A stretch of DNA of 64,000 bases from Candidatus Aldehydirespiratoraceae bacterium (GCA_965204595.1 CBDBEW010000005.1:614565-678564), one strand, 5' to 3'. Shown: positions 11,985-64,000, numbered from the stretch's first letter. Numbers and translations are program-made. The notes: a model not told the origin generated them from the letters alone.

Positions 11985-12073
11985 TTTCAGGGGTTGTGCC
12001 CACACTTTCAACCACAAGAGTCGATCCGGTGCGAGCACTTGGATAGGCAAAGATTGAGCTTGGAATATAAAGA

Positions 12074-27577: not shown

Positions 27578-27580
27578 TCG

Positions 27581-30500
27581 ATGACTCAAAGTGGTGCGAC
27601 CGTCCTTGAGAACCGCCTAGTCCTGCACCGCTTTGTCTGTCAGGAGTTCGGATACGACGACTTGGGCGCGATGCTTGACCAACTGAACCAGGTGCGACCC
27701 GAACTAGGGTTCATCGGTGAAAGCGACTACGTCCAAGCGCTACGACTGCACAGTAAACGCGCCAAAATCCGTGTGGGACCCATGGAACTGGCTGAGTACG
27801 ACAGGAACATCGCGACGCACAGTCGCGAGTTGCGAATCACTCTAGAACATGGTCGAACCTGGAAGCCTCATCAATACCTGGCTCTGTTGTTTACCGAACA
27901 CTACTTGAGCCGCTACTTCGATGACCCTGAAGCACTCCGAAACGATCTAAACGACAAAAAGAGCAGCCACCGACTCACGAGTTTGATGCCGGACTACGAA
28001 CCGAACGACCTGCGTACGCTGGCCTTCCAGAGTGCCACCGGCTCGGGCAAGACGCTGCTGATGCACACCCACATCCTGCAATACCGGCACTACCTAGCTC
28101 GGGCCGGCGGTCGGCTCAACAACGTAGTGCTAGTGACACCCAACGAACAGATGTCGTCGCAGCATCAGCGCGAGATGCAAAGCAGCGGTATCCCCGCTCG
28201 CCTGTTCTCCATTGAGGCTGGCTCCGAGCTATTTTCCCCGGTCGAGATTATCGACGTGAACAAACTGGCCGAGAAGCAAGGCGTTAAACGAGTGGCGGTG
28301 GCGGACTTCGGCGACGATAATCTGGTGCTGGTGGACGAGGGCCATCTGGGTACGTCGGGCAAGGTGTGGCGGGAGCGGCGGCGAGAACTGGGGACCGGCG
28401 GGTTCACATTCGAGTACTCGGCCACCTTCAACCAAGTGGTGAACAAGAAGGAGGCAGACCTGCTCAACGCCTACGGCAGATGTCTGCTATTCGACTACTC
28501 CTACCGCCGGTTCTATGAGGACGGCTACGGCAAGGATTCCGTTATTCTGAACCTTCCAGGTGGTGCCGAAGACGAGAACAGCGACATGTACTTGCTCGGC
28601 TGCCTGTTGACTTTCTTCCAGCAGTGCCAAATCTGGGAGAACAACGCCAGAGTTTGGGAGGCGTACAATCCGGCAAAGCCGCTATGGGTGTTCCTAGGCA
28701 AGACGGTGACAGGATCAAGCCGAGCCGACAAGGCGACTCGGTCCGACGTGATCCAGATCGTGGATTTCCTCGGTCGGGTGCTAGCGCATCGTGACCAAGT
28801 GCTACCGATGATTGAACTACTGCTGGCTGGGCAGTCTGGCTTACTGGACGATGCGGGCGGCGATTTTTTTCGCGGCCGATTCTCACACCTGAAACAGGGC
28901 AGACCCGAAGCCCTCTACGCCGACCTGTGTGAGACGGTTTTCAACGGGTCGGGACGATTGCACGTCGCCTATCTGACCCAGGGCGAGGGGGAACTTCATC
29001 TTCGAACCACCGACAACGAACCCTTCGGCGTGATTAACGTCGGAGACTCGGCATCACTCTACAAGTTGCTTTCCGAGAGACCCGACTCCGACTTCGATGT
29101 CCGAAAGGAGATGGGCTTCGAAGCTCGGCTCTTTGCCGATGTAGACCGGCCGGACTCAACGGTGAACGTTGTCATCGGTGCCCGGCGTTTCATCGCGGGA
29201 TGGAATTCTTGGCGGGTTAGCACCATGGGACTCATGCATGTGGGTGTGGGGGAGGGACCCGAGATCATTCAGATGTTCGGTCGAGGCATCCGGTTGAGGG
29301 GCCGGAACATGAGCCTGAAACGCCATCGGGAGACGGATACAGACTTTCCTCCCTTAAGCGATCAATTACTGGAACTTGAGAAGCTGTACATCTTCGGCCT
29401 TCGGGCAAACTACATGCAGACCTTCCGGGACTTGCTGCGAATGGGAGGGGTTAGGATCGAGCAGGATACCTTCACCCTACCCGTCACCTGGAACTTCGCG
29501 CAGACAAGTGATCTGAAACTGATCCGACTGAAACAAGGCCGGAAATACGATGTCTGCAAGGAGAGGCCGGTGCTTCCGGCCCCCAACGGCGAGGACCGAC
29601 CCGCCATAGTGACCCTAGACCTTTATTCGCGGCTCCAGTCCATCACGTCCCAGGATGGCTCAAACGGTGCCAATATGGACAAGATCACGTTCGGAAGGCT
29701 CCCGGACTACGCAGCCTTCTTCGACATCGTGCGTATATTAGACCGGCTGCTGTCGCGGAAACAGCAGAAAGGATGGAGCAACCTCGTCATCGAGAGAGAG
29801 ACCGTGGAACAGTTGCTGCAATCCAAGAATTGGTACGAACTCTACTTGCCGCCCGATCGCCAAGACATCTTCGGATTCGACCAGGTGCGAGCACTGGAGG
29901 ACATCGCCGTCGAGTTGATCACCGAATACGCCGACCGCTTCTGGCGCAAGAAGCGACGCAATTGGGAACACGACCAGATTGAGGTCATGACGCTCGGCGA
30001 GGACGACCCCAACAGGATCCATGATTACAAGCTGTCGGTCGATGCTACCAAGGACCAGTTGGTGGAAGAAGCGGTCGCCCTTGCTCGAACGCTCAAGGAG
30101 AACGATCCAGACAACCTGAAGGCTTGGTATGAGCACCTAGAGATCGGCACTATCCAGGTGAGTTCCCACGCATACCAGCCCCTGCTCTACGCTAAGGAAA
30201 CCCGTGTCATCGCGATTCAGCCCGTCCCCATTAACGAGAGCGAAAAGCGCGTGGTCGAGGACTTAGCGGGGCTGGCTGAGCGCGATGACCCTTGCCTGCA
30301 GGGCAAGGAATTGTTCGTCATCCGCAACCTCACCGGGGGTCGCGGGGTGTCGTTCTTCGACGACTTCGGTTACTACCCCGACTTCATTGTCTGGCTGCGA
30401 GACGAAAGCTCCCAACACGTTTTGTTTCTCGATCCCAAAGGGTTGGCCCGGTTCGGGCGGAAGGAGCGCAGGAAGGTCAAACTACACCACGAAATCGCCG

Positions 30501-30694
30501 AAACTGGGAACCGGGTGCGAACGGAAGACCCGAACCTGGAACTACACGCCTACGTGCTTTCGGTGACACCAGCTTCCGAGATCGATGACGGAAACCGCAC
30601 CTTAGAACAATGGAAACGGGACGGCGTTTATTTTTTGAACGACCCCGATTGCCTGCAACAGGTGATCAAGCATGCTCTCACTCGTACCAAATAA
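27581..30694 (+). CDS. type III-like restriction subunit (Res): SF2 helicase + C-terminal PD-(D/E)xK nuclease
   Basis: 1037-aa ORF starting 4 nt after the Mod stop. It has Walker A (ATGSGKT), a DEAH-like box (LVDEGH) and motif VI (QMFGRGIRLRG). The C-terminal YYPDFIVW...VLFLDPKG fits a PD...D-x-K nuclease. Confidence 0.8.
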   Translation: MTQSGATVLENRLVLHRFVCQEFGYDDLGAMLDQLNQVRPELGFIGESDYVQALRLHSKRAKIRVGPMELAEYDRNIATHSRELRITLEHGRTWKPHQYLALLFTEHYLSRYFDDPEALRNDLNDKKSSHRLTSLMPDYEPNDLRTLAFQSATGSGKTLLMHTHILQYRHYLARAGGRLNNVVLVTPNEQMSSQHQREMQSSGIPARLFSIEAGSELFSPVEIIDVNKLAEKQGVKRVAVADFGDDNLVLVDEGHLGTSGKVWRERRRELGTGGFTFEYSATFNQVVNKKEADLLNAYGRCLLFDYSYRRFYEDGYGKDSVILNLPGGAEDENSDMYLLGCLLTFFQQCQIWENNARVWEAYNPAKPLWVFLGKTVTGSSRADKATRSDVIQIVDFLGRVLAHRDQVLPMIELLLAGQSGLLDDAGGDFFRGRFSHLKQGRPEALYADLCETVFNGSGRLHVAYLTQGEGELHLRTTDNEPFGVINVGDSASLYKLLSERPDSDFDVRKEMGFEARLFADVDRPDSTVNVVIGARRFIAGWNSWRVSTMGLMHVGVGEGPEIIQMFGRGIRLRGRNMSLKRHRETDTDFPPLSDQLLELEKLYIFGLRANYMQTFRDLLRMGGVRIEQDTFTLPVTWNFAQTSDLKLIRLKQGRKYDVCKERPVLPAPNGEDRPAIVTLDLYSRLQSITSQDGSNGANMDKITFGRLPDYAAFFDIVRILDRLLSRKQQKGWSNLVIERETVEQLLQSKNWYELYLPPDRQDIFGFDQVRALEDIAVELITEYADRFWRKKRRNWEHDQIEVMTLGEDDPNRIHDYKLSVDATKDQLVEEAVALARTLKENDPDNLKAWYEHLEIGTIQVSSHAYQPLLYAKETRVIAIQPVPINESEKRVVEDLAGLAERDDPCLQGKELFVIRNLTGGRGVSFFDDFGYYPDFIVWLRDESSQHVLFLDPKGLARFGRKERRKVKLHHEIAETGNRVRTEDPNLELHAYVLSVTPASEIDDGNRTLEQWKRDGVYFLNDPDCLQQVIKHALTRTK

Positions 30695-32821: not shown

Positions 32822-35343
32822 ATGTCAGGTAAGCCGGCTCGGTCGTTGCTGGCGGTGGCGGTCGGATTGGCGGGGTTGGCGGCCCTGCCGCAGGCGTCGC
32901 CGGTGGGGGCGCAGAACGCCGAGACCGTCACGAGGACTCTGGAATCCGGCGTCGAGGTAGAAATGCCGGCAGGGAAATTCTACACGGTCGTGGACTCCAA
33001 GACAGGCGAACGGAGGCGGCGCCGTTCGTGAAGGAGACCTAATCGAGTTCACATTGTTGTTCGGCGAGGCTACCGACGTGAGCGACCCTCCAGAGTTGAC
33101 CTGCTCCACTATCGACGGCACCGCACGGCAAGCAGACAACGATTTCGTCGGGGGTGACTTTCCTGTGCGTGGTGTCAGTTCAATGAATCAGTCCGTTACA
33201 AAGGTCACTCTTCCCGTCTTGACCAAGACGGAGTTCCAAGCATCGCCCCTTCGCGTAAACGTTTACGACCCGAGCGAGTACTTTTCGGTTCTTTGTTTAA
33301 CAGACGCCGGCAGCCGCGACTGGACTCCTTGGCGCGCATCTTTGTTCCATATCACGATCCTGGATCAGGTGGAACCAGAGACTCCTCCGACAGTCACCGA
33401 TCCTCCCAACGTTGCTTCAGTATCTACCGGCCCGGTAATCATGGCTCCGGTGCCTGAGGGCAAGTTCTACTCGTTGACTTTCCACAATGGCGGCGACGGT
33501 ACGGTCGACGCTGAAGGTCGGATAGTCGAAGGCGATCTGGGCGAGTTCGTTCTAGCACGCGGTCAACAGACAGGGGAGGACGTGACCTTCACCTGCACCA
33601 CGAGCGACGGCACAGCCGACGAATCCGACTACGTGGGAGGATCCTTCCCGGGCACCGCGTTCGCGGGCACGGGCGGGTTCACTCTGCCGCTGGTCACCAA
33701 GCACGACACCGTGGTCGAACTCGACGAGTACTTCTGGATTGAATGCATGCCGACTAGCGGAGACGACATGTTCGATTGGCGTGTCTGGGGGGTCGCCGCG
33801 GGCAAGGATACGGTTGGTCGACGATACCACAGAGGTGCGTTTCCACGAAACTGGCGTCACCATCGAAGAAGGCGCGACCGGCACCGTGTCGGTGATCGCC
33901 GACGGCAAAAGGCGCACGCGCGAAAGGCACCCGGAACTCCACGGTGAGCGCGGTGGTCTCGTTCTTCGACGAAGGCACGGGCGCGCTGCACCCCGAAGAC
34001 GTCAGGTTCAGCGGAACCCAGGCTGCGAGCATGACGCACGCGCTCGGCGGGACGTCGATCGAACCACAAGCAATCACGCTTCAAGCAGTTGACAACAGTG
34101 TCTGCGAGGGACCGAAGATCGGAATCGTGGGACGTCTCTTCACCTTCAGCATCGGATTGGGCGAGTGCCGGGGCGATTCTAGGAGGCTTGCAGAGAGCCT
34201 ATCTCAGGATCGTTGACGACGAGGACGCCCCGTCCGCTCCGCCTGCGGTGGCTGCGGACGTCAACGGCAGCAATCTGGCGGTCGAGTGGCTCGAGCCGTC
34301 GTGTCCATATCTCAAGGGCGTGGAGATGGAGTACCAGACCGTTGGGGCCGCGTCGTGGACGAGCGGGCTCAAGGCCGGCCGCCAATGGGACTACGACGGC
34401 GACGGCGACCCCTCGAACAACGCTGCGTTGACGATGTCGCACACGGCGGCCGGAGTCGCTGCCGGCGCCGAGTACAACGTGCGGGTGCGTTATCACAACG
34501 ACGGCGGCGCCGGCGCCTGGAGACAAGTGCTCTCAGGCACGACGGCCATCGTCAGGACCACGAGTCCCTCCTCGTCGGGAGGCGGACCAGTTGCGCCGCC
34601 GCTAGGAGGCGGCACTTTCACGCCGCCGCCGACCACGCCTACTGGCGGAGGCGACCCGCCCCCCGACTCCTCTGATACCGGGGAGGGTGACGAGCCGCCG
34701 GATCCACCGCCGGCCCCGGAGTCGCCGAGGTACACGATCTCTGTGCGCGACCCTGCCTGCGAGCCTAACGCGGGGCTTGAGAACTTCCCGTTCGCGGACG
34801 TGGCGGAGACCTCCTACGCCAGAGGCGACGTGGGCTGTCTGACAGCGCTTGAAGTCACCACCGGGACCAGCCCCACGACCTACTCGCCGGCCCGGGAAGT
34901 CACCCGTGCCCCAGATGGCGTCGTTTCTGGCGCGGCTCTTCGGATCGGTCACCGGCGAGCAGGCCCCGGTGGGGCAGACTCCGTTCACAGACGTCGCGGC
35001 GGGCTCGACCCACGCGGCCGACGTCGCTCGCCTGTACGGGCTCGGGATCACCCCCGGCGCCGGCGCCACGGCCTACTTCCCCGACCAGACAGTCGACCGT
35101 GCCCGGATGGCTTCGTTCCTAGCAGGGCTCTACGAGGTAGTGACCGGCGCGCCCGCCCCGGTCGTAGAGACACCGTTCACTGATCTGCCGGCAGACTCCG
35201 CCGCCGCGGACGACGTCGCCCGCATCTACGGGTTCGGGATCACCACCGGTACCGACGCCACCACCTACTCACCGGACCTGCCGGTGAACCGCGAGCAGAT
35301 GGCGTCGTTTCTAGCACGCCTCTACCGCGTCCTCACCGAGTAA
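32822..35343 (+). pseudogene. surface protein: signal peptide, Calx-beta-like repeats, FN3-like domain and three SLH modules; needs five +1 frame changes
   Basis: The signal is MSGKPARSLLAVAVGLAGLAALPQASPVGA. There are two repeats of ..GKFY...EGDL.EF......TC.T.DGTA...D(F/Y)VGG.FP, and Calx-beta-like ends (DEYFWIE; RIRLVDD; YLRIVDDEDAP). SLH modules fit F.D......A.DV..LY..GIT.G......Y.P...V.R.QMASFLARL. Reading continuity requires frame changes near 33011, 33787-33792 (G6), 33907-33910 (A4), 34165-34173 and 34909-34912 (C4). Confidence 0.7.
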
Positions 35344-35456
35344 CCCCAACCCGCGCCGCCAACCCACTGCAGCACCTTGTAGGATAGTGACGGTAGGCTT
35401 GGGACGCAAAGAGGTAACGGAGTAAAGATATTCGCGATAATTTTGAAGGCAAACCC

Positions 35457-37613
35457 GTGCTAGCATTGACGAAAGAGCGCTACCGAGACCTGCTGGCAGG
35501 CTCGGCGGCGGTCGTCGGGCCGTTGCTGCTCTACGCCGCCACCATGCCGCGGGGTGGTCTCGCTCGAAGACGACGGCCTGTTCCTGCTAGTCGGCAAGTA
35601 CCTGGGGATCGGGCACCCGTCCGGCTATCCGATCCACACGCTGCTCGCCAATGTGTTCCTCAAAATCCCCTGGGGGAGCGAGGCCTTCTTGGGGCACCTG
35701 CTCTCAGGCGTGCTGGGCGGGTTCGCCTGCGGCGCCGTCTACGCCTGCGCACGGCTCTACCGCGCCGGGCCGCTCGCCGCATTGGCGGGGGCGTGGCTCT
35801 TCGGCGCCTCGGAGCACTTCTGGGCACAAGCCATCATCACCGAGGTCTACACGCTCAACGCCACTGTTCTTCTTCGTCATCCTGGCGCTGCTGCTGCACC
35901 TGCGCCGCAACCGGGACAACGACCAAGACAACGACCGAGCCTGGCTGGCGCTGGCATTCATCTCCGGGCTAAGCCTCGCCAACCACTGGCCGCTGATGGG
36001 GCTCGCCGCCCCCGGCCTTGTGCTGGCACTGCTGCCGATGTGGCGGCAAGTCCTGCGCCGTTGGTGGCAGCTGGCCGCGGCGTTTCTGCCCGCAGTGGTC
36101 GCCCCCTATCTGTGGATGGCCGCACGCTCAGCGCAGGAGCCGACCTTCAGCTTCCCCGGCCCGCTCGACACTTTGGGACAGTTTCTCGACTCACATCGCA
36201 CGCAGCGGATACAGCGAAGTCGACACGTCCATCTCAGCGGGATGGTCCGACCGCTTCAAGTTCCTCGAATGGTTCGCCACCGACCTGGTGTGGCTGATGA
36301 CCCTGCCGGGCTTTTTGCTGGCACTGGTCGGACTCGGCGCCCTGCTCACGCGCCGCCAACCGGAGCCGGAACCGCAGCCGCAGAAGCGCCAGTCACGGAG
36401 GCGCAACGCACGCCGAGGCCGAGGACGCCGCCGCTACAACGGCAGCGTCTTGGACCCGACACTCGACAGGCTGGCGGCCTGGGCCGGTCCGGTGGTGTTC
36501 CTGTCGCAGAGCGTGGCGATCATCGTGATCCTGCAGTTCGACTTCGACTTCCAGCGCACATTCGTCTTCCGCGCCTACCCGTCGGTCAGCTACGGGCTGC
36601 TCGGCATCTGGATCGCCGTGGGGCTGCACCAGGCGGGCGCCAAGCTCGCTGAGACGGTGAACCCCCCCAAGCTCGCGCTGCCGGCGGCCACGGCGGCGGT
36701 CGGCGCGCTGCTGGTGGCGTGGACGGTGGCGTCTCACTGGGACAGCAACAACCGTGCCGACGCAGACTTCGCGCAGCGCTACGCCGAGATGGTCTATGAG
36801 ATCCTGCCGGACGACGCGGTGCTGATCACCTTCGGCGACGAGGTCGTGCTGCCGCTGGGCTACCTCCATCACGGGGAGGGAGTGCGGCCCGACGTCCGCT
36901 TCGCGGAGGCTCACGGGATCATGTTCCCCGGCAACATCTACGACAGCATCGCCAACATTACGGTCGAACAGCAGCAGGCCGACCTGCTCAGATTCCTCGA
37001 AACCACCGACCGCCCCGTGTTCACCACGTACCGGAACAACAGGGTCGACCACGGCCGGGCAGTGAAGGACTGGGGATTTCTGCGCGAAGTCTTAGCCGAG
37101 GGCGACCCGGCCGAGACGATCCAGCTGCAGCCCCACGACAAGACCGCGGAGTACTTCCGTCACATAGTCGCCCAGAGCGACCTCGACGGCTGGGAGCGCG
37201 TCGCCCGCGGTCACCAGGTGATCGACTACGGCCAGTTCCTCGGCTACGCGCTGCTGAGCCGCGACGAGGCGATCATCGAGTCCACCGCCGTCGAGCGCGG
37301 GCTCGCCGAGGCGGACTACTTCGGTCTCAACGGCATGGCCGGCGTGCTCGCCCGCTTCGGCGACGACGAGCACCTTGAGCAGGCGATGGAGTACCTGCGA
37401 GCCGCCCTGCCGTTACGGGATGCCGCAGTGACCAAGCAGGCGCAGGCGGAGGTCTACAACAACATCGGCATCGTGCACTGGCGACAAGGCCGGTCCGAGG
37501 AGGCCATCGAGATGTTCGAGACTTCACGAGATCTGATCGACGACCCCGCCAACCCCGGCGTGGACTTCCTCAACCAACTAGCGAACGACCAGCTCGAAGC
37601 CACCCAACCCTGA
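35457..37613 (+). pseudogene. DUF2723-like multi-pass membrane protein (glycosyltransferase-C fold family) with C-terminal TPR; needs three +1 frame changes
   Basis: Pieces are MLALTKERYRDLLAGSAAVVGPLLLYAATMPRG, then VSLEDDGLFLLVGKYLGIGHPSGYPIHTLL.., then LFFFVILALLLHL..LANHWPLMGL.., then THIARSGYSEVD...TPR (AEVYNNIGIVHWRQGRSEEAIEMFE). Shifts lie near 35551-35554 (G4), about 35860 and about 36185. Confidence 0.65.
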
Positions 37614-37721
37614 TCGCCACCCAGAACCCGCCTCCTAGAGCACCCCCCCACAAAGCCAAAAAGGTTCCACAAAACCGTTTGGTGGTGCGATCGTAAAAAA
37701 TATTGGTAAGCTACATGACTT

Positions 37722-55708: not shown

Positions 55709-56478
55709 TCAAATGTCGGTTCCCGGCAGGACATCAGAGATGTCTGACGCTAGGTCACTTCTTGTGCCCGCCATCCCTTCGACCCTCTTGACCGTTAGTT
55801 TCTCGTCTCCAACATCGATTTGGACACTTTCGGAATTGAGCGTCAATCGCAACTCCGGCAGTTCGCTCGGAGTATCAGAGAGAAGTTGTGCAAGGGGACT
55901 CCGAACATACCGTTCTATGAAAAGGCCCATAGCGTACCCCGCTTCGTGCTGTAGGTGGGACCAAGCGTCGTCACCCACGCGATCATCGGCTCAAACAGGT
56001 ATCCGGTTTCTTGAACAGCTCTGTTGTCGATGTCGAACATCCATTTTCGCAAAATAAGGAGAGATCCCAAAGCTTTGCTGTCTAGGTCTCCGAACTGGAG
56101 GAGGCCCCGGGGACCGACCTGCTCGAGAGACGGGATTGCTTGCAAAGCAACGATATTAGCGAATTTAAGCCTAGCTCGATGAAGAGCGGCGAGTGAAAAG
56201 AAGAACATATCTGTATCAATTGGTCCCAACTCCAGTAATCTTTCGAACGAACCAAGCGCAGAAATCTCGCCGTCGAGTGCTAGCGAGTCAACCGGAATTT
56301 CAAAATAAGAGCGATCCTCGAACGGATCTGGATCCACTACACCCTCAAGAGCGAGATCACGTGAGACGACAGCAACAAGTCCTCTTATTGCACTGTCAGA
56401 CAGAGAAATACCCTGATCTCCTGCACCACGGCGCCGAGCCTTCTCAAACAGTGTCATCTGACTCTTGGTCAAGACCAC
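55709..56478 (-). pseudogene. candidate type II restriction endonuclease partner of the C5-MTase, interrupted by a frameshift
   Basis: The 187-aa ORF (55915..56478, overlapping the MTase stop) reads ..MFDIDNRAVQETGYLFEPMIA. The reading continues plausibly in another frame as VGDDAWSHLQHEAGYAMGLFIERYV.. (ORF 55709..55978). The nuclease call rests on position and size only, with no motif recognised with certainty. Confidence 0.4.
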
Positions 56479-57797
56479 AACGACATCTCTCCAAGGTTGT
56501 ATCTGTCGCTAATTCGTGAGACCACATTTCGCAAGGATGGACTCATTGCTGATCCATTGGTGACGTAGAATTCGAGGAGTCTGCCAGGTACAGAATGGTC
56601 GTTGTTCGTGTCCATCCTGGAACCTATCCAATGCCCGATGATTTCTCCGAACACCGGAGGGACAGAGTTGCCGATGAGCGTAGCCTGCTCCGTTCGGTTA
56701 CCGACGAATTCGAAATCGTCAGGGAAACCTTGCAGTCGCGCGCACTCTCGGAGACTGAGGAACCGATTCAATCGAGGGTGAACAAACTCTCGCCCAGCTC
56801 CGCTGGTGATAGCTTTTGACGGCTCGTCAGGTCTGAGCCTTCGCAGACCGTATGGTGCCCCGCCCCGACGATGCGTCGGCATACCGTCTGCGACCCGGCG
56901 GTTGGCTCGCCGAGAGTAGCTCGGATGCTGGAGGCTCGGAGGCAGATCTCCCATCGTCTGACCGCACTGTAGTGATTCGATGCGTTGCAGTTCGTCTCCG
57001 GTACTTGGTGTCACGAAATGGCCTTGCACCTTGGCTTCCGCGACGCTCGCGGCGACAGGAGGGAGTCCGACGAGCGCATCATGAACGCATGGTGCAAGCG
57101 GAAGACTCTCGGTGCGCTTGAGTTGCGCGCCCGGCGCGCCGTACGCGTGGTGCGACGGACTGGGAAAACCAGGATCGGTGTGCAGAGCGCCGATCACAAC
57201 TACCCGCTTCCGCAACTGCGGAACACCGTAGTTGGCGATGTTCACCTTGCGGAGCCTCACCTGGTACCCGCACTCAATCAGGTCGTCTAGCAGATCTGTT
57301 ACAAAATCACCGCCCGACATGGTCAGGAAGCCTTCTACATTCTCAAACAGGAACCACTTTGGACTCAACTCGACGACCAACCGAGAAAACTCACGTACTA
57401 GGGTGTTGCGCTTATCGAAGGCCCTTCTGGCACCTGCCGAGGTGAACCCCTGACACGGTGCTCCACCGACGACTAGCGAAGGGCGCACGTTCCCGGACAA
57501 CTCAAGGATGTCCATTCCAGTCAGCCCTCGAACGTCGTCTCTAGAGACGACCACCCCCTCGAAGTTGCGATTCAAGGTCGAGATCGCGGGATCCCAATTG
57601 TCGTTGAGCACCATCGCCTTGAACCCAGCCCACTGCAGGCCGAGTGTCAGTCCGCCCGCGCCGGCGAACAGGTCGACGCACGCAATCGACTCGCTACTCA
57701 ATTCGTTGGGAGTGCAGATCAAACTCACAACCCGATCATAGTACGGTAATGCGACAAGCACGTTGAGTCCCGCGTTGTCATGCATACTAGCCCGCAA
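56469..57797 (-). CDS. DNA (cytosine-5)-methyltransferase
   Basis: 442-aa ORF (TTG 57797; alternative ATG 57785). It has motif I DLFAGAGGLTLG, motif IV GGAPCQGFT, motif VI FLFENVEGF, motif VIII QLRKRVVVIG and motif X GNSVPP. Confidence 0.9.
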   Translation of the reverse strand: MRASMHDNAGLNVLVALPYYDRVVSLICTPNELSSESIACVDLFAGAGGLTLGLQWAGFKAMVLNDNWDPAISTLNRNFEGVVVSRDDVRGLTGMDILELSGNVRPSLVVGGAPCQGFTSAGARRAFDKRNTLVREFSRLVVELSPKWFLFENVEGFLTMSGGDFVTDLLDDLIECGYQVRLRKVNIANYGVPQLRKRVVVIGALHTDPGFPSPSHHAYGAPGAQLKRTESLPLAPCVHDALVGLPPVAASVAEAKVQGHFVTPSTGDELQRIESLQCGQTMGDLPPSLQHPSYSRRANRRVADGMPTHRRGGAPYGLRRLRPDEPSKAITSGAGREFVHPRLNRFLSLRECARLQGFPDDFEFVGNRTEQATLIGNSVPPVFGEIIGHWIGSRMDTNNDHSVPGRLLEFYVTNGSAMSPSLRNVVSRISDRYNLGEMSLWS

Positions 57798-57812
57798 ACG
57801 AACCTCGTCTTT

Positions 57813-57872
57813 CTATAAGGGATTCTAACCGAATATAAGAAATAGGTTAGATTTGTAGATATTTCCTTATAG
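57813..57872. promoter_or_regulatory. paired inverted repeats in the divergent MTase/ATPase intergenic region
   Basis: The outer repeat is ctataagg (57813..57820) / ccttatag (57865..57872). The inner repeat is tctaacc (57824..57830) / ggttaga (57845..57851). The region is AT-rich and lies between two divergent starts. Confidence 0.3.
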
Positions 57873-57880
57873 TTGACGCG

Positions 57881-59062
57881 ATGGACCCTTCAACAAACCC
57901 GTATGCCCCTAAAGCTGGAACGCCGCCACCGCATTTGGCGGGACGCAACGACCTGCTACGCGATTTTGATGTGATACTGGCTCGCGCAGCTATGGCTCAC
58001 TCGGTGCAGCCTCCGATTCTGTCGGGACTTCGTGGTGTTGGTAAGACCGTTCTTCTGCTGCAGTTCAGATCGAAGGCGCGTCAAGCCGGTTGGGTGGCTG
58101 AAATGTTTGAGACCCGACCGGAAGGCAACCTGCGACGGCAGGTCTCAGACGCGCTCATTCCGATGGTCAGAGCTCTCAACCGAAAATGGCGCAACAAGGA
58201 GAGGGTGACGCAAATCGGCCGGATCGCGGCGAGTTTTGTGCAGGCCACGACAACGACGCTCACGCGAGGCGGAATCGCGCTCCACTTCGAGCCCGAAGGG
58301 GGGATCGCTGATTCGGGCGACTTTGAAACCGACCTGATCGAACTTGTGGTTGCGTTGGGCGAGGGTGCCCGCGCCGAGAAAACCGGTGCGTTGTTGCTTA
58401 TCGACGAAATACAGGATGCCCAACTCGAAGGGCTTGCTGCAGTAGCTGGCGCAGCACATCGGATCAACCAAGAGCAATTGCCAGTGGTGATTAGTGGTGC
58501 CGGCCTCCCTCCCGCGGGCCGCCACCTGTCAGAAGCGCGCTCCTACTCCGAGCGACTATTTTCGATCAAACCGGTTGACAAGCTCAACGACGACGACACC
58601 GCTGTCGCGTTGTCGCAACCCGCCCACACGTGTGGGATTTCCTTTGACGAGGACGCTCTGCAGGCACTAGTGAAAGCTTCGGGTGGATATCCATTTTTTA
58701 TCCAGACACACGGCAAACACGTTTGGAACCGAGCGACCGCATCACCCATCACGCTTGCAGACATAGACGAATCGGTTCCAGAAGCCAACCGGGAACTAGT
58801 TGAATCGTTTTTCACACCCCGCTACGAGCGGGCAACCCGCGCTGAGCGCCGCTACCTGCATGCTATGGCCCGCGCCGACACCGAACCAGCCTCATCAAGT
58901 GAAGTGACACGGTTACTAGGGCACAAAAAACCGGAGCGGGCATCACCGCATAGAGACTCACTTATCAGCAAAGGCCTAATCTACGCCCCCGAACGAGGCC
59001 GTGTTGCGTTCACCGTACCCAACATGTCGGACTTCTTGCGGAACCTTCCAACCCCAGAATAA
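57881..59062 (+). CDS. AAA ATPase (Orc1/Cdc6- or AAA_16-like) with a C-terminal winged-helix-like region
   Basis: 393-aa ORF. LAGRNDLLRDF is followed by Walker A GLRGVGKT and Walker B LLLIDEIQ. The C-terminal ..SSEVTRLLGHKKPERASPHRDSLISKGLIY fits a wHTH. Confidence 0.7.
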   Translation: MDPSTNPYAPKAGTPPPHLAGRNDLLRDFDVILARAAMAHSVQPPILSGLRGVGKTVLLLQFRSKARQAGWVAEMFETRPEGNLRRQVSDALIPMVRALNRKWRNKERVTQIGRIAASFVQATTTTLTRGGIALHFEPEGGIADSGDFETDLIELVVALGEGARAEKTGALLLIDEIQDAQLEGLAAVAGAAHRINQEQLPVVISGAGLPPAGRHLSEARSYSERLFSIKPVDKLNDDDTAVALSQPAHTCGISFDEDALQALVKASGGYPFFIQTHGKHVWNRATASPITLADIDESVPEANRELVESFFTPRYERATRAERRYLHAMARADTEPASSSEVTRLLGHKKPERASPHRDSLISKGLIYAPERGRVAFTVPNMSDFLRNLPTPE

Positions 59063-59316
59063 CAAACTACTCCACAACCAACCCGACCCCCAATTTCCCA
59101 ACCCGCCAATCCACCACCCATCGGAATAGAGAATCCATTTAGGCTCGCGATACCGTCAATGGTAGCTTGTTTTACTTCTGCTGAAATAGTAGACAGATCG
59201 TTGACAACGATCAAGCCTTTGTTCACAGCATATGTGTAACCATCAATCGTTACCCGACCTGCAGTCACTGCAAATTCTCGCCCACGAATAACAACTTTAG
59301 CCACGGATCGAGCCAC
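58981..59316 (-). CDS. hypothetical small protein downstream of the cassette array
   Basis: 111-aa ORF. The last 27 codons overlap the ATPase 3' end antisense. No family recognised, and it may be spurious. Confidence 0.25.
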   Translation of the reverse strand: MARSVAKVVIRGREFAVTAGRVTIDGYTYAVNKGLIVVNDLSTISAEVKQATIDGIASLNGFSIPMGGGLAGWEIGGRVGCGVVCYSGVGRFRKKSDMLGTVNATRPRSGA

Positions 59317-59332
59317 AGATTCCTTCCAAAAA

Positions 59333-59419
59333 TCACGAGACTGCGTCGAAACAGAACCATATTACCAGTTGAGTTGCGCTGTATCGTTGTGTTGCGTCGT
59401 GTTGGTCGCGTGTCGTCAT
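59333..59419 (-). pseudogene. B-type cassette gene stump (28 codons)
   Basis: MTTRDQHDATQRYSATQLVIWFCFDAVS followed by a stop. It parallels the first about 25 residues of 63314..63697 (MTTRDRDVDRERFSATQLAISFCLGAV) and starts 5 nt after the upstream stop. Confidence 0.55.
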
Positions 59420-59720
59420 GTCGGTTATCTCGCCTCAATAATGACTCTGTCTTGCAAAATAATGACGTTGTCTTCCAGCGTTTTCCAGAATTTGTTGGTT
59501 TTTTTGGGTAAGGGTGGGTGCCAGGGTAGGTCTGGGATGTTGGTGTTGGGGTCAGGGCAGGTTCCGTCGTTGTCTTGGAGGTCGTTGGTGTCGCCGTCGC
59601 CGTTTACGTCGTGGGTGAAGCAGTGGCGATGCGGGGTTGTTGCCGCTTTGCCGCTGCTGTCTTTGTAGACATGCAAGAATTCGGCTCCATGGGCGTGAAA
59701 GCTTCCATGGTGGAGGTCTC
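59414..59720 (-). repeat. cassette junction/A-domain DNA repeat, copy a
   Basis: Near-identical by eye to 63690..64000. Shared strings include gtcatgtcggttatctcgcctcaataatgac and ttttccagaatttgttggtt..gggtaagggtgggtgccagggtaggtctgggatgttggtgt. Confidence 0.85.
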
Positions 59721-59892
59721 TAATCATGGCGTCGGTTAAATTGGTGGGTAGCCCACGAATCTGCACCATCCACGTCAACAAGACACCAAGCACAAGACCA
59801 AAAACCAAGCCAACACAAGAATATTTGAACAGTTGAGTTTCGGTGAAGCGTTTTCGTTCGTCGTGTTGTTCGCGGGTTGCCATGTCGGTCAT
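59425..59892 (-). CDS. cassette chimera: B-type N-terminus/TM helix fused to the A-type Cys/His/Asp-rich domain
   Basis: 155 aa. MTDMATREQHDE..VGLVFGLVLGVLLTWMVQIRG parallels the N-terminus of 60089..60508. LTDAMIRDLHHGSFHAHGAEFLHVYKDSSGKAATTPHRHCFTHDVNGDGDTNDLQDNDGTCPDPNTNIPDLPWHPPLPKKTNKFWKTLEDN..EAR then parallels the other A copies. Confidence 0.6.
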   Translation of the reverse strand: MTDMATREQHDERKRFTETQLFKYSCVGLVFGLVLGVLLTWMVQIRGLPTNLTDAMIRDLHHGSFHAHGAEFLHVYKDSSGKAATTPHRHCFTHDVNGDGDTNDLQDNDGTCPDPNTNIPDLPWHPPLPKKTNKFWKTLEDNVIILQDRVIIEAR

Positions 59893-60010
59893 CTCGCCTC
59901 TTTTTTCTCACAGTAGTGGATGATGTGTTTGGTGTTTTCCAGTGTTTGCCAGAATTTGTTGTTTTTTTGGGTAAGGGTGGGTGCCATGGGTAGGTCTGGG
60001 ATGTTGGTGT
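59880..60010 (-). repeat. cassette junction DNA repeat, copy b (short, more diverged)
   Basis: catgtcggtcatctcgcctc ... ccagaatttgttgtttttttgggtaagggtgggtgccatgggtaggtctgggatgttggtgt. Confidence 0.8.
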
Positions 60011-60074
60011 CAGGGTCGGGGCAGGTTCCGGTCTTCCTCAGTCGAGCGGTGCTAGTTTCCGGTTCTTCACTCAT
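59889..60074 (-). CDS. mini A-type cassette ORF (61 aa)
   Basis: MSEEPETSTARLRKTGTCPDPDTNIPDLPMAPTLTQKNNKFWQTLENTKHIIHYCEKKEAR. The stop overlaps the next start (ATGA). A homologous start (MNEEPASSAARPRKT..) follows the other B gene at 63300 but is truncated there. Confidence 0.35.
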   Translation of the reverse strand: MSEEPETSTARLRKTGTCPDPDTNIPDLPMAPTLTQKNNKFWQTLENTKHIIHYCEKKEAR

Positions 60075-60088
60075 CAACAAATTCTCTG

Positions 60089-60508
60089 CTACATCCGCCG
60101 CAACAGACTGTGGATCTCTGCTACATCCTCTCCAGCAGACTGTGGAGACGAGTTTGCTGGTTTCTCTGCTATAACGCTCTCTTCCGCGTCCCCAGCCGGT
60201 GTCGACGAATCGGTCCAATCAGAAAGCCGCTGGTCGGTGGCTTCTGTCGATGCGCCGTCGCTGTGCCGTCGGGAAAGCCACTTCGCACCGAAATTAGATT
60301 CAGAAGCGGCAACACCGATAGTGCTACCAACAGCAGCCGGCAGAATCATCAGCAATGTGGCAACCACTCCACGAGTATGCACCATCCACGTACACATGGC
60401 ACCAAGTGCAAATCCCAGCACTATGGCAACGATCAAGCATATGGTCAGATGAGTTTTGGTAACCCATTGGTGTTCGTCGTGTTCGTCGCGGGTTGCCATG
60501 TCGGTCAT
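60089..60508 (-). CDS. B-type cassette protein (small 2-TM protein with an acidic C-terminal tail)
   Basis: 139 aa from ATG 60508, which overlaps the upstream stop as ATGA. It has two hydrophobic helices and the tail ..DWTDSSTPAGDAEESVIAEKPANSSPQSA, paralogous to 63314..63697. Confidence 0.6.
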   Translation of the reverse strand: MTDMATRDEHDEHQWVTKTHLTICLIVAIVLGFALGAMCTWMVHTRGVVATLLMILPAAVGSTIGVAASESNFGAKWLSRRHSDGASTEATDQRLSDWTDSSTPAGDAEESVIAEKPANSSPQSAGEDVAEIHSLLRRM

Positions 60509-61521
60509 CTCGCCTCTATTTTCTTGCAGTAGTGGATGATGTGTTTGTAGACGACTGCGTAGTCTTGCGTTTGTTTGGTTTCGGTGATAACGTGTTGGCG
60601 TGTTGCCCAGCGGTCCGACCGCCAACGGTTGCCTTGGGGCGGATTCAGGCAACCCGTGTGCCCGGCGATAGTGATCACAGGCCCGTCGTCTCCTCTCGAC
60701 GAAAGGATAACCGCGGCAATAACACTAACTGCGAAACCGGCAAAACCCACCGCGCCACTCCTAAAGGATCTGGACGCGCGGGCGAGTCTCTTGAGTGCTG
60801 CGTTGGTAGCCGCACCTGCGGCAGGGCCGGCGCTTGTAGTAATGACGGTGTTTTCTAGTGTTTGCCAGAATTTGTCGGTTTTGTTGGGTAAGGGTGGGTG
60901 CCAGGGTAGGTCTGGGATGTTGGTGTTGGGACCGGGGCAGGCTCCGTCGTTGCCTTGGGGGTCGTTGGTGTCGCCGTCGCCGTTTACGTCGTGGGTGGCG
61001 CAGTGACGGTGCGGGTTTGTTGTTGCTTTGCCGCTGCTGTTTTTGTGGACATGCCAAAAGTCGGCTCCGTGGGCGTTGTTGCTTGCGTGGCTGAGGTCTC
61101 CGATCATGGCGTCGGTGAGGGCGATGTTCAACGGTTCTGTCCATGCGAACGTACACGTTCGGGTATGTCCCCCAACAGTTTTGGGTATGCTCGCCGTGCA
61201 GTTGTGAGCGCCTGAGTTCATCGTGGCCTCATCGGTGACAAGCCTGACAAGATTCGGGTTGAACCAACGCGTGGTCGTGTCGACTGGGTCTTTCCCAAGA
61301 CGTCCGTTGGGACTGCGCCAAGCCTCACCATCGGCCGGGTTAGCTGGATCAAGCCCATCACAGGTGACGGTGTCTGTTTCGGCATAAGTCACCCAGCCTG
61401 TTTTGTGGCTAGCGGTGACTGTGACTTGGTATTGTTGTCCGAACTCGGCGGGGTAGACCTCGGTGTTGTTGATGCTATGACGCACGATTATCTTTGTGTC
61501 CCCAGTTTTGCCGATACGCAA
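60505..61521 (-). CDS. 5'-truncated FN3-stem + A-type domain + inserted TM segment (orphan cassette)
   Basis: Homology to 62049..63050 starts mid-domain (..GTGLIPVRYTLRIGKTGDT..YPAEFGQQYQVTVTASHKTGWVTY) directly after an in-frame TGA at 61567..61569. There is no ATG or SD, and the listed start is TTG. It continues into the A domain, a 100-aa insertion (60547..60846) with a TM helix, and the shared tail KHIIHYCKKIEAR. Confidence 0.5.
   Translation of the reverse strand: MRIGKTGDTKIIVRHSINNTEVYPAEFGQQYQVTVTASHKTGWVTYAETDTVTCDGLDPANPADGEAWRSPNGRLGKDPVDTTTRWFNPNLVRLVTDEATMNSGAHNCTASIPKTVGGHTRTCTFAWTEPLNIALTDAMIGDLSHASNNAHGADFWHVHKNSSGKATTNPHRHCATHDVNGDGDTNDPQGNDGACPGPNTNIPDLPWHPPLPNKTDKFWQTLENTVITTSAGPAAGAATNAALKRLARASRSFRSGAVGFAGFAVSVIAAVILSSRGDDGPVITIAGHTGCLNPPQGNRWRSDRWATRQHVITETKQTQDYAVVYKHIIHYCKKIEAR
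60847..61130 (-). repeat. A-domain DNA repeat, copy c (its junction part sits at 60497..60546, separated by a 300-nt insertion)
   Basis: ccagaatttgtcggttttgttgggtaagggtgggtgccagggtaggtctgggatgttggtgttggg... through ..gtctccgatcatggcgtcggtgagg. Confidence 0.8.
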
Positions 61522-61566
61522 AGTGTAGCGTACCGGTATGAGGCCGGTGCCTACTGCACTGACTAG

Positions 61567-61818
61567 TCATTGAGCAAGTGGAGATGATTCTTCAAATTGC
61601 CGTCTTTTCCTGTGGAGCAAGACTCTTCTATATTCTTTAGTTGCAATAACTGTCCTGTACATAGCATGCACCACATGAAACGAATAGATTAAAATGTAGA
61701 GCAAACTATACTCAATAAATATCCAGTGAATCAAACCAAAGGTGCCACCGCAATAAAATCCGAGTGCAAAAAGTGCAGAACAAGCAAATCGAAAACTCGA
61801 AGGTTTTTCAGATCGCAT
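61567..61818 (-). CDS. hypothetical small membrane protein in an AT-rich insert
   Basis: 83-aa ORF with two or three hydrophobic segments and a basic tail. It is strikingly AT-rich compared with both flanks. Confidence 0.4.
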   Translation of the reverse strand: MRSEKPSSFRFACSALFALGFYCGGTFGLIHWIFIEYSLLYILIYSFHVVHAMYRTVIATKEYRRVLLHRKRRQFEESSPLAQ

Positions 61819-62048
61819 TAGCTTGCATTTTCCTCGCTAGGATCACAGTAGTGGTATGTTGATATTCGAGTGTCGGTGAATGATCCAAACGTTGAAGTTT
61901 CGGTTACTGTGTCTGACATCGGGGTTATATTATAGTTATATTATAGTTGGAGAGACAACCAGCAGCTGTGTCGCTGCGAAGCGGATTATTTGCCGCTACC
62001 AACGCAGAGACGGTGGGGAACAACTTCAACATCTCGGTGTCGCTGCGT

Positions 62049-63050
62049 TTAGTATAGTAACCGATGTGGGTCAATGTGCTCCCCTGTTCCAGCACCAACC
62101 ACCAAAATCCAAGCAGTCACAGTAGCCTTACTTAACACTGCGTAGTGCAGACTCGCAACGGAAATAATCGTAGATAAGTTTCTACCCCAATCATCCCAAG
62201 TCTTCCATTCGGTTCGTCCGAGTGCTTGGCATACTGTATCAGGGTCTTTGAGGAGTGTTATGTTTTCTGCCCAAGTTTCAGTACAGGTTCGGCTAGTCGT
62301 TGAGGGGGTTGTGCATGATCGGGACAACAATACTCGCTCAGCTGATTGAGGTGAGAAACGTGGACCGCGGAGTCGCCACGTCTCACTACGCAACCTATCT
62401 GTATATCCCTTTGTGCACATCGCACGACTAACAATGTTGCTGGGGCAGTCTTCGTCTGGGTCAAAGAAGTTGGGACTGTTCCAGTTGTCGGTGTGGGTGG
62501 GGCAGGTGATGGTGTCGGTGTCTGTGTAGGTCGCCCAGCCTGTTTTGTGGCTGGCGGTGACGGTGACTTGATATTGTTGTCCGAACTCGGCGGGGTAGAC
62601 TTCGATGTTGTTGCGCGTGTTTCGAACGCTGGTTTGGGTGTCGCTGGTTTTGCCTGTCTGCACCTTGTAGCTGGTCGGTGTAAGGCCAGTACCGGCATAT
62701 GGGTCGCTGAATTTGGCGACTAGCAACGCGTTGGTGGTGCATTCAAGTGTCAAAATGTTCCGCGGTGTGGTGGAACATTTCACTTTCGCGGCGGTTCCAG
62801 TTGTGCTTTGGTTGTCTATAGCGCGCACAGCCAACGTGAACACCTGCCCAGTGCCTAGAGAGTTGAATGTGTGGGTGTAGACACCACCGAGTCGGGTGCC
62901 TGCGGTGTCCCATGGCACTAGGTGTGGTGCTTCTGGCAAAGTAGATGCCTGCACTTCATAACGCACCGCGCCAGATGCTGGCATCCATGTAGCAGTCAAA
63001 CTGTTGCTAGACGCAGCGATGCACTTAAATCCAGTGACCTCTGGCGACAC
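62049..63050 (-). CDS. FN3-like repeat protein with a distinct Cys-rich C-terminal domain
   Basis: 333-aa ORF (GTG start). It has two FN3-like modules (..SLTATWMPASGAVRYEVQ..; ..YKVQTGKTSDT..YPAEFGQQYQVTVTASHKTGWATY), then an unrelated roughly 170-aa C-terminal region. There is no signal peptide, and an in-frame TAG lies at 63066..63068 just upstream. Confidence 0.55.
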   Translation of the reverse strand: MSPEVTGFKCIAASSNSLTATWMPASGAVRYEVQASTLPEAPHLVPWDTAGTRLGGVYTHTFNSLGTGQVFTLAVRAIDNQSTTGTAAKVKCSTTPRNILTLECTTNALLVAKFSDPYAGTGLTPTSYKVQTGKTSDTQTSVRNTRNNIEVYPAEFGQQYQVTVTASHKTGWATYTDTDTITCPTHTDNWNSPNFFDPDEDCPSNIVSRAMCTKGYTDRLRSETWRLRGPRFSPQSAERVLLSRSCTTPSTTSRTCTETWAENITLLKDPDTVCQALGRTEWKTWDDWGRNLSTIISVASLHYAVLSKATVTAWILVVGAGTGEHIDPHRLLY

Positions 63051-63313
63051 CGCGGTCGATGTGGCCTAGTTTCTCGGCACGGTCGTTGTCGACGTGGTCA
63101 TTGTGGTGGTGGTTGGGACGTATCGGGCGTGGCCTTGCATCTCGTGTTCTTGCGGGCCGTTGCGTGTGTGGATTTTGGGTGTGCTTCTTTGAATCGGAGC
63201 GTGGCGATAACGAGCGGAGTGGGTTGGGGGTCTGTCAGTTGGGTTTGCGGCCACGAGTCTTCCTCGGTCGAGCGGCACTACTTGCCGGTTCTTCGTTCAT
63301 CAACAATTCTCTG

Positions 63314-63697
63314 CTACGTCTCCGCAGCAGACTGTGGAGAGGAGTTTGCTGGTTTCTCTGCTAGAACGCTCTCTTCCGCGTCCTCAGCCGGTGGCGACGA
63401 ATCGATCCAATCAGAAACGCGCTGGTCGGCGGCTTCTGTAGAAGCCCAGTTGCTGTGCAGTCGAGAGCACCACTTCGCACCGAAATAAGATTTCAGAAGC
63501 AGCAACACCGGTATTAACGCCCCCACCACCGAATAGTATAGAAGAGTCGTCAATGCGTTTTCCACTCCACGCTTCTGCGCCAACAACACGAACATGACAC
63601 CAAACGCAGATCCCGGGACTGCGCCTAAGCAGAACGATATTGCTAGTTGAGTTGCACTGAAGCGTTCCCGGTCAACGTCTCGGTCGCGTGTCGTCAT
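63314..63697 (-). CDS. B-type cassette protein (small 2-TM protein with an acidic C-terminal tail)
   Basis: 127 aa. It starts 5 nt after the upstream TAA and is paralogous to 60089..60508 (shared FGAKW.SR.HS..ASTEA.DQR.SDW.DSS.PA.DAEESV.AEKPANSSPQSA). Confidence 0.6.
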   Translation of the reverse strand: MTTRDRDVDRERFSATQLAISFCLGAVPGSAFGVMFVLLAQKRGVENALTTLLYYSVVGALIPVLLLLKSYFGAKWCSRLHSNWASTEAADQRVSDWIDSSPPAEDAEESVLAEKPANSSPQSAAET

Positions 63698-64000
63698 GTC
63701 GGTTATCTCGCCTCAATAATGACTTTGTCTTCCAGAATAATGACGTTGTCTTCCAATGTTTTCCAGAATTTGTTGGTTTTGTTGGGTAAGGGTGGGTGCC
63801 AGGGTAGGTCTGGGATGTTGGTGTCAGGGTCGGGGCAGGTTCCGTCGTTGTCTTGGAGGTCGTTGGTGTCACCGTCGCCGTTCACGTCGTGGGTGAAGCA
63901 GTGCCGATGCGGGGTTGTTGCCGCTTTGCCGCTGCTGTTTTCATAAACATGCAAGAATTCGGCTCCGTGGGCGTAAAGGCTTCCATGGTCGAGATCTCTA
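63690..64000 (-). repeat. cassette junction/A-domain DNA repeat, copy d (runs off the window)
   Basis: See copy a. Confidence 0.85.
63703..64000 (-). CDS. A-type Cys/His/Asp-rich domain protein, 5' end beyond the window
   Basis: The frame is open to the window edge: ..RDLDHGSLYAHGAEFLHVYENSSGKAATTPHRHCFTHDVNGDGDTNDLQDNDGTCPDPDTNIPDLPWHPPLPNKTNKFWKTLEDNVIILEDKVIIEAR. Confidence 0.6.
   Translation of the reverse strand, partial: RDLDHGSLYAHGAEFLHVYENSSGKAATTPHRHCFTHDVNGDGDTNDLQDNDGTCPDPDTNIPDLPWHPPLPNKTNKFWKTLEDNVIILEDKVIIEAR

Follow-up and report, generated by a model that had tools for sequence, protein, structure and literature searches.

Why does a short piece of bacterial DNA carry the same fragment of a surface-protein gene twice, joined each time to a different C-terminal domain? 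The question is raised by positions 59336-64000 of a 64,000-nucleotide stretch from Candidatus Aldehydirespiratoraceae bacterium (GCA_965204595.1, CBDBEW010000005.1:614565-678564), the whole of which is termed the window. A preliminary description had noted two open reading frames (ORFs) there, 62049..63050 and 60505..61521, which share a stem of fibronectin type III (FN3) sequence and end in different domains, here called CT1 and A-type, and had compared them with the orphan modules of polymorphic toxin loci. The orphan-module layout is supported, because the repeats and the switch between domains are real, a module has been replaced as a block between two related loci (L005 and L013), and stem and C-terminal domain have discordant phylogenies. 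We read the array as a set of displaced C-terminal modules, truncated at the 5' end, from a polymorphic family of FN3 cell-surface proteins, with an effector and its neutralising partner as the likeliest function, and place the probability of this reading at about 0.6. Loci in related genomes are given L numbers and individual proteins P numbers.

The array and its shared stem

How closely do the two copies agree, and where does agreement stop? In a register of +1142, positions 61361-61473 and 62503-62615 are identical at 98 of 113 nucleotides (87%). The core of this tract, 61392-61458, matches at 64 of 67 positions with all three differences at synonymous third positions, and the window contains a 29-mer from this core at exactly two places, where none is expected. 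The near-identical stem of about 110 nucleotides that had been reported is confirmed as a repeat, but the second of the ranges assigned to it (62521-62620) was 2 nucleotides out of register. On the 5' side of the tract identity is about 50-65% and reaches back to approximately 61551; on the 3' side of the Cys codon in TDT(I/V)TC it is that of chance, 1-5 of 20, and the sharp switch described at this point stands. The ratio of non-synonymous to synonymous substitution rates (dN/dS) between the two stems is 0.21, from few sites. A tract of this kind would provide homology through which an orphan could be re-joined to an expressed gene.

The array in which the copies lie is the distal part of a set of displaced, 5'-truncated C-terminal modules and continues past the window end. 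All its features are on the minus strand and read 5' to 3' from 64000 downward:

63706..63999, minus: 3' part of an ORF with a transmembrane (TM) segment and the A-core (TM + A-core ORF), incomplete because the window ends there, with its stop codon at 63703-63705; assigned by A-core translation match
63314..63697, minus: small two-TM ORF, 127 amino acids, with two hydrophobic segments; the partner type found after A-type modules
63069..63191, minus: decayed end of the Cys/His repeats and poly-Thr linker remnant of a full-length gene; from tblastn with the N-terminal part of L007 and reading of the sequence
63065-62781, minus: FN3a of the CT1 orphan; Pfam fn3
62780-62502, minus: FN3b of the CT1 orphan, containing the stem tract 62503-62615
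62052..62501, minus: CT1 ectodomain, starting PTHTDNWNSPNFFDPDEDC, Cys-containing; from alignment with P0010-P0018
61821..62071, minus: CT1 hydrophobic segment and tail (...STYHYCDPSEENAS*), in two other frames; from P0010 and P0012 homology and split-frame tblastn
61567..61818, minus: small membrane ORF, 83 amino acids, coupled to CT1 through a TAATG overlap
61360..61551, minus: 5'-truncated FN3b stem of the A-type orphan, with the near-identical tract 61361-61473
60508..61359, minus: A-type C-terminal module, uninterrupted; homologous to the C-terminus of the L002 protein
61359-61132, 61131-60844 and 60843-60508, minus: parts of the A-type module, respectively the pre-core, the His-rich, Ca-loop-like A-core, and the hydrophobic segment with tail (...YKHIIHYCKKIEAR)
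60089..60508, minus: small two-TM ORF, 139 amino acids, coupled to the A-type module through an ATGA overlap
59892..60029, minus: A-core end joined straight to a tail end (...FWQTLENTKHIIHYCEKKEAR*), the remnant of an internally deleted A-type module
59425..59892, minus: complete TM + A-core ORF, 155 amino acids (P0041), its start overlapping the stop of the preceding remnant (ATGA)
59336..59434, minus: truncated start of a small TM ORF, at the distal array end

Both copies of the original two-copy layout are real, but the array is larger, with further A-core and small-ORF copies at 63999-63706, 63697-63314, 60029-59892, 59892-59425 and 59434-59336. Repeat comparison connects the pieces through families of direct repeats, one pair of which (63706-63999 and 59398-59697) is 93% identical in nucleotides. 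Start/stop coupling to the small ORFs is kept at every array junction, and none of the window's modules is attached to an N-terminus competent for secretion. Inverted repeats are absent from 58500-64000, the 64 kb window has no further family copies elsewhere, and a promoter and terminator scan was uninformative. As to what lies beyond the window end, L011, an 878-bp scaffold from another sample, is 94% identical to 64000-63618 and has the order A-type tail, TM + A-core ORF, small ORF; on that evidence an A-type module very probably lies upstream, beyond 64000. It is likely to be P0002, which starts at MNSGAHNC and is therefore also truncated.

Is the upstream copy the parent gene? ORF 62049..63050 encodes 333 residues from a GTG start. 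It has a Pfam fn3 match (E 3.7e-7), after which come another beta-sandwich and a domain containing Cys, and its FN3 part shares 57-64% amino acid identity with L005, L006 and L007. The earlier account of FN3-FN3 plus a Cys-rich C-terminal domain holds this far, but the real C-terminus runs on: the intact homologues P0010-P0012 indicate that CT1 should extend to ...STYHYCDPSEENAS* at 61821, an end that is reached only by changing frame twice, in one case because of an 11-bp tandem duplication (AACTATAATAT twice, 61927-61948). The first frameshift, near 62060-62085, adjoins a GGGG run and may be a sequencing error; sequencing error was rejected as the cause of the 11-bp duplication and of an in-frame TAG at 63066-63068. 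Homology with full-length relatives extends 5' across this TAG to about 63191 (tblastn with the L007 N-terminal part, and reading of the sequence), and the N-terminal domain and signal peptide are missing. Since homology crosses the stop, the N-terminus is absent and the tail carries two frameshifts, the CT1 copy is a truncated, inactivated orphan or pseudogene and not the parent gene. The idea of an FN3 gene with a truncated copy downstream is accordingly abandoned, the upstream ORF being 5'-truncated too; neither copy has an N-terminus and both are therefore orphans.

The A-type orphan is better preserved. Its frame is open from 61566 and becomes homologous to the other copy at about 61551, midway through the second FN3 domain; the starts available within 60505..61521 are TTG and GTG only, with no Shine-Dalgarno sequence, so that the view of an ORF beginning mid-FN3 without ATG or ribosome-binding site was correct. 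It comprises 353 uninterrupted codons, and is intact yet without a start. The module shares 48-51% amino acid identity over approximately 312 residues with the C-terminus of the 1009-residue L002 protein and carries the invariant motif H...H...HRHCxTHDVNGDGDTxD...NDGxCP...PDLxWHP. It is not a stand-alone conserved gene, an outcome that would have undermined the orphan interpretation; in relatives its homologue is the C-terminal part of proteins of 316-1009 residues. A single TGA (61567-61569) parts the 83-residue small ORF (61818-61570) from the A-type orphan (61566-60508) in the same frame, and read-through would fuse the two. The shared frame is probably coincidence, with a chance of 1 in 3.

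The family in relatives and the exchange of its modules

Do other genomes carry the same pieces? Homologues are exceedingly scarce: among 5.8 billion clusters the A-type query found 8 proteins and the CT1 query 11. The genome-scan matches are in metagenome-assembled genomes (MAGs) of Acidimicrobiales, Ca. Aldehydirespiratoraceae and Sva0996, and the family is one found in Acidimicrobiia-type actinobacteria. Complete genes are present in L002 (1009 residues), L003 (1194 residues) and L005 (a 980-residue ORF), and the gene in L007 is split by an insertion sequence (IS). The full-length protein has, in order, an N-terminus that by eye resembles a signal peptide, Cys/His-rich repeats, a Pro/Thr linker, two to seven FN3 domains and the C-terminal module. 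At least three kinds of module occur: A-type, CT1-like (subtypes a and b, plus variants in L003 and L004) and a non-FN3 type (P0019 and P0020). Every kind consists of an ectodomain, a hydrophobic segment and a tail of about 60-80 residues with two Cys, ending ...HYC or similar, and in relatives a module-specific small membrane ORF lies directly 3' with overlapping stop and start codons. The N-domain family bears further C-termini besides.

Truncated copies recur as well. In L003 a truncated FN3-FN3-A-type copy comes after a complete gene, and in L004 and L008 the order is A-type module, two-TM ORF, truncated stem with a CT1-like domain; a truncated stem with a different C-terminal domain lies downstream of another copy in each case, as it does in the window. 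The model of orphan displacement comes from the literature on Rhs and on systems of contact-dependent growth inhibition (CDI) (PMC3967940, PMC3482391). Here too, older modules may have been pushed downstream when a new one recombined in, as for the Rhs and CdiA orphans. L003 also contains a hybrid ORF (10657-11094) in which the A-type hydrophobic segment (...YAWLKDDKP) runs straight into the CT1 ectodomain (NFYDPGEDC...), a deletion joint between adjacent cassettes with an IS insertion after it and the CT1 tail 1.5 kb further on. In L013 (10001-11281, P0013) the middle of FN3a is preceded by the N-terminus of the UPF0014 membrane-protein gene next door, the two having been fused by a deletion. 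Lost in that deletion are the gene for the recombinase and the surface-protein gene's 5' half, both of which L005 has at this site.

Have modules moved between genomes? The stem on the window's A-type module shares 64-70% amino acid identity with CT1-carrying stems and 23-27% with the A-type-carrying stems of L001-L003. The phylogenies of stem and C-terminal domain disagree: in the window a CT1-lineage stem carries an A-type domain, and conversely in L004 an A-lineage stem carries a CT1-like domain. L002 and L005 are orthologous loci, with 77% nucleotide identity in the upstream DNA and the 5' end of the gene, 52% amino acid identity in the N-domain and 72-86% nucleotide identity in the downstream lipoprotein gene. 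They lie in different chromosomal contexts. L002 carries two FN3 domains, an A-type module and a two-TM ORF of 113 residues; L005 carries four FN3 domains, CT1a and a different small ORF.

The comparison of L005 with L013 is the most direct. Both occupy the same chromosomal site, with a left flank 91% identical over 6.6 kb and a right flank 88% identical over 2.9 kb. Their FN3 parts are 86% identical up to L005 position 11062, just past ...NWNSPNFFDxDEDC, the next 1 kb or so has no detectable nucleotide similarity, and similarity resumes at the lipoprotein gene. The replaced block consists of CT1a and an 88-residue ORF in L005 and of CT1b and an 85-residue ORF in L013. Module and small ORF have been replaced as a block between genomes, and the small ORF therefore travels with the C-terminal domain. 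This block is a strain-to-strain swap of the kind that the preliminary description had proposed looking for, and exchange is also seen in the different modules of L002 and L005 and in the discordance of stem and C-terminal domain. The breakpoints lie at conserved coding junctions, namely the FN3 end (...TDTxTC), ...NWNSPNFFDxDEDC, or the linker before the FN3 domains. The L002, L005 and L013 loci are clean allelic pairs for experiments.

Could the exchange be programmed? Homologous Cre-like tyrosine recombinase genes, 47-56% identical to each other, adjoin the locus in L002, L003, L007 and L010. In L002 a piece of about 100 nucleotides from the 5' region of the large gene (residues 44-77, DPPLF...HCGPGD..WLC; 8036-8140) is repeated at 12017-12121, after the lipoprotein gene and beside that of the recombinase. 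The pair might be direct repeats of an att-like type at the ends of the mobile unit. Both observations would suit a shufflon- or integron-like system, in which the recombinase shuffles or excises cassettes site-specifically and so changes the expressed C-terminus. We regard such programmed switching as very improbable. The 64-kb window contains no recombinase, all copies are direct, no short conserved crossover site was identified, and the breakpoints are located within conserved coding sequence, where homologous recombination would be expected to place them. A shufflon was rejected on the first of these grounds together with the lack of inverted repeats in 58500-64000. The recombinase may mobilise the whole island of about 5 kb, and this is more likely than shuffling of cassettes because the gene is absent from the window and the locus has a different context in L002 and L005.

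A second possibility is that the array is purely genomic debris, tandem paralogues broken by deletions, duplications and IS elements with no cassette role and no re-use, the identity of the stems reflecting only recent duplication or gene conversion. The stop, frameshifts and 5' truncation of the CT1 copy are of this nature, as are the internally deleted A-type remnant and the truncated small ORF; IS elements and deletion joints are frequent in L003, L005, L006, L007, L012 and L013, and protein searches detected no parent gene in the source contig. Against this, the A-type orphan retains 353 uninterrupted codons with 48-51% identity to distant relatives, coupling is kept at every junction, the same layout recurs in distant genomes and cassette exchange between genomes is demonstrated. 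In addition, the GC content of the array equals that of the window itself (53.5% for the window, 60-65% in the named relative MAGs), and the array is therefore not fresh junk. We judge mere debris to be improbable.

Small membrane partners and the possible function of the modules

What are the small ORFs that accompany the modules? A small membrane ORF had been reported after each domain and this is the case: 61567..61818 follows CT1, coupled by TAATG at 61820-61816, and 60089..60508 follows the A-type module, coupled by ATGA at 60508-60505, so that both overlap the preceding stop. The type of small ORF co-varies with the module, being different for A-type, CT1a and CT1b. Alignment among the CT1a-linked ORFs from the window, L005 and L007 is weak (E ~1e-3), and those linked to CT1b differ from them. 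The A-linked two-TM ORFs have no significant similarity across genomes, and position, topology and shared termini are the sole support for a relationship. Within the window the copies at 63314-63697 and 60089-60508 share 52% amino acid identity, the latter having a longer C-terminus because of a 32-nucleotide tandem duplication (88% identical) at 60083-60146, its 3' end. The TM half of the small ORFs gives dN/dS values of 0.77-0.88, from few sites. In L010 (11311-12958) there is an 835-bp tandem duplicate, 94-100% identical, of the last 146 nucleotides of the surface-protein gene and the small two-TM ORF; the small-ORF duplicates differ chiefly in the second TM segment.

The TM + A-core ORFs, in which an N-terminal TM segment precedes the A-core, recur beside A-type modules in the window, L001 and L011, and the same architecture is found in P0006, P0007, P0028 and P0030. 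P0030 has both termini in common with the two-TM ORF of L002, and the two kinds of ORF are therefore related. Between the two window copies (59425-59892 and 63706-63999) dN/dS is 0.17, and against L011 it is 0.42-0.63 (0.42 for P0041), again from few sites.

What, then, might the modules do? By analogy, the protein may be an exported effector with a membrane-active C-terminus, neutralised in the producer by the cognate small membrane protein, a tentative assignment to which we give slightly less than even odds. It is favoured by the coupled, co-varying small membrane ORFs and by glycine-zipper-like hydrophobic segments in most A-type relatives. Glycine-zipper, membrane-depolarising or pore-forming C-termini are known among toxins (PMC12744356, PMC10684867).

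Several results weigh against a toxin or against a working array. The C-terminal domains and small ORFs have no match in Pfam, NCBIfam or the PADLOC toxin, immunity and defence families, and the A-type and CT1 module profiles have no sequence match in the PDB. This agrees with the preliminary description, which recognised no known toxin fold; the same family, profile and PDB searches found no housekeeping homologues of the domains, the other outcome that would have spoken against its proposal. AlphaFold2 models were too poor for a fold search, with predicted local distance difference test (pLDDT) scores of 32.6 for the A-type module and 48.9 for a CT1 homologue. The glycine zipper was rejected as a universal feature, since neither the window's A-type copy nor the CT1 types have it. 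The domains of classical polymorphic toxins are promiscuous; the present modules are not shared by other delivery systems, and all 18 matches to an A-core profile among 1.84 billion representatives are in the FN3 surface-protein architecture. The hydrophobic segment and conserved tail also suit a simple membrane anchor. The ORFs that follow A-type modules repeat the same A-core in membrane-anchored form, an unusual trait in an immunity protein, and the dN/dS values are intermediate (0.17-0.88) and based on few sites. Finally, the array may be largely relic, since the CT1 copy is dead and protein searches found no intact parent gene of the window's genome, although complete decay is argued against by the intact A-type orphan and the retained start/stop overlaps. 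A search of a plasmid collection gave no A-type module match.

The points that speak against a toxin fit a recognition or adhesion role about as well. The same exchangeable architecture might then produce a variable surface adhesin or a self- or kin-recognition protein, whose C-terminal ectodomain works with a co-evolving small membrane partner, the anchored A-core of the A-type partner suggesting homotypic or decoy binding, and whose diversity would stem from recognition specificity or from pressure by phages or predators. An anchored surface protein is suggested by the FN3 stalks, the Cys-rich ectodomains and the hydrophobic segment with its conserved tail; the recurrence of TM + A-core ORFs beside A-type modules, the termini they share with small ORFs and the dN/dS of 0.17 for one A-core pair would be in keeping with this, as would the empty toxin searches and the restriction of the C-terminal families to one architecture. 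However, replacement of a C-terminal domain as a block with its coupled downstream ORF is most typical of effector/immunity pairs, and so are tandem extra copies of the small ORF (PMC3482391). A purely recognition or adhesion function is in our view unlikely, if far from negligible, and an effector with its neutralising partner remains the function we favour.

Modules that act as effectors would, with their partners, add new families of membrane-targeting toxins and immunity proteins; modules that act in recognition would instead make the locus an example, in bacteria, of cell-surface identity encoded by cassettes. For Proteobacteria, Bacillota and Streptomyces there is already a good map of polymorphic effector/immunity systems; Acidimicrobiia are abundant in soil, marine and wastewater communities. 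A full-text literature search returned nothing on a described polymorphic effector/immunity system in Acidimicrobiia. A more elaborate proposal, which we consider rather doubtful in its entirety, is that of an unrecognised effector/immunity or self-recognition system of Acidimicrobiia. It would combine a Sec-exported FN3 stalk, exchangeable membrane-active C-terminal modules of new folds, overlapping partners and an A-core decoy or homotypic partner, in a unit of about 5 kb (gene, partner and lipoprotein) mobile with a Cre-like recombinase.

Surroundings of the array and known systems

What lies around the array? A housekeeping citrate synthase gene ends at 55640 and the variable region therefore starts at about 55.7 kb. 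Conflict-type genes adjoin the array at 55915-59062:

56469-57797, minus: type II C5 cytosine DNA methyltransferase, adjoining the array
55915-56478: ORF of 187 residues with no family match, overlapping the methyltransferase
57881-59062, plus: AAA_16 ATPase, adjoining the array

Further away, two large ORFs of 1053 and 1037 residues at 24416-30694 contain domains of N6/N4 DNA methylases and of type III restriction (ResIII), which gives the window a second system resembling restriction-modification. The region 33000-37700 has a high GC content (0.64-0.67 against about 0.52 around it) and overlapping ORFs in different frames, with an FN3 match at 34089-35183, SLH-like repeats at 34849-35343 and a TPR protein at 36018-37613. 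Possibly this is a surface-protein region of foreign origin or with frameshifts; it has no similarity to the FN3 array family.

How does the locus compare with systems already described? Block exchange, displaced orphans, conserved junctions and duplicated partner genes form the pattern of polymorphic toxin loci (PMC3482391, PMC3967940). In the sense of Zhang et al. 2012 (PMC3482391), the family has a conserved part with exchanged, unrelated C-termini and a downstream small gene that co-varies with the C-terminal domain and occupies the position of an immunity gene, for which a protective function would be assumed by analogy. Stand-alone 5'-truncated cassettes are present in the window, L003, L004/L008 and L010, the main gene being unseen for the window's genome, and the C-terminal domains belong to no recognised toxin fold or family. 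The N-termini of the relatives, which by eye resemble signal peptides, would be the putative export signal; the window copies have no N-terminus.

The orphan cdiA-CT/cdiI modules (PMC3482391, PMC9086364) are similar in being 5'-truncated copies downstream of a large surface-protein gene, in keeping part of the conserved region before the variable C-terminus with a small cognate ORF next to it, and in the swapping of domain and small ORF as a unit at a conserved junction. In contrast to CDI loci, the window copies and full-length relatives have no CdiB or two-partner secretion, no FHA repeats (Pfam finds fn3 only) and no VENN motif; the host is actinobacterial, the stalk FN3, and the C-terminal domain has a hydrophobic segment and conserved tail with no known toxin fold. 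Rhs/YD-repeat orphans (PMC3967940) likewise have displaced C-termini homologous to the main gene and tandem arrays, and there recombination can re-activate an orphan. Unlike Rhs loci, this one has no YD repeats, no PxxxxDPxGL motif (in the window frames or L002, L003 and L005), no RHS/YD Pfam match, no type VI secretion system context and no parent gene seen in the window's genome. Membership of the CDI or Rhs families is excluded by the lack of FHA, VENN, YD and PxxxxDPxGL, Pfam detecting only fn3.

The Gram-positive polymorphic toxins TspA/TsaI and EsxX, which depolarise membranes or form pores and come with membrane immunity proteins and rows of immunity paralogues (PMC9484751, PMC12744356), together with the Rhs pore-former Tse5 (PMC10684867), resemble the modules in their hydrophobic, often glycine-zipper, C-terminal segment, in small multi-TM partner genes directly downstream and in tandem duplication of the partner (here in L010). 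The differences are that LXG/WXG domains and type VII secretion genes were not seen here, that export through a Sec signal peptide is predicted (in the relatives), and that the window copies have no glycine zipper.

In silent-cassette antigenic variation (Neisseria pilE/pilS) and recombinase-driven surface variation (the R64 shufflon, Mycoplasma vsa), a conserved segment is common to an expression locus and to 5'-truncated copies without promoters, much as here, and the tyrosine recombinase near four of the related loci recalls such variation. The present array differs in that each cassette has its own coupled partner ORF, the copies are direct rather than inverted, sfx-like sites are lacking and the window holds no recombinase. 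Proteus mirabilis IdsD/IdsE is comparable as a variable membrane-associated protein with a small membrane partner whose co-varying regions define identity; the locus differs from it in having no type VI secretion system and no sequence similarity, and in its architecture of FN3 stalk and predicted Sec signal. Set beside these systems, the locus bears the genetic signature of polymorphic effector/immunity loci with domains of no known family, on a scaffold of putative signal peptide, Cys/His repeats and FN3 stalk not earlier linked to such systems.

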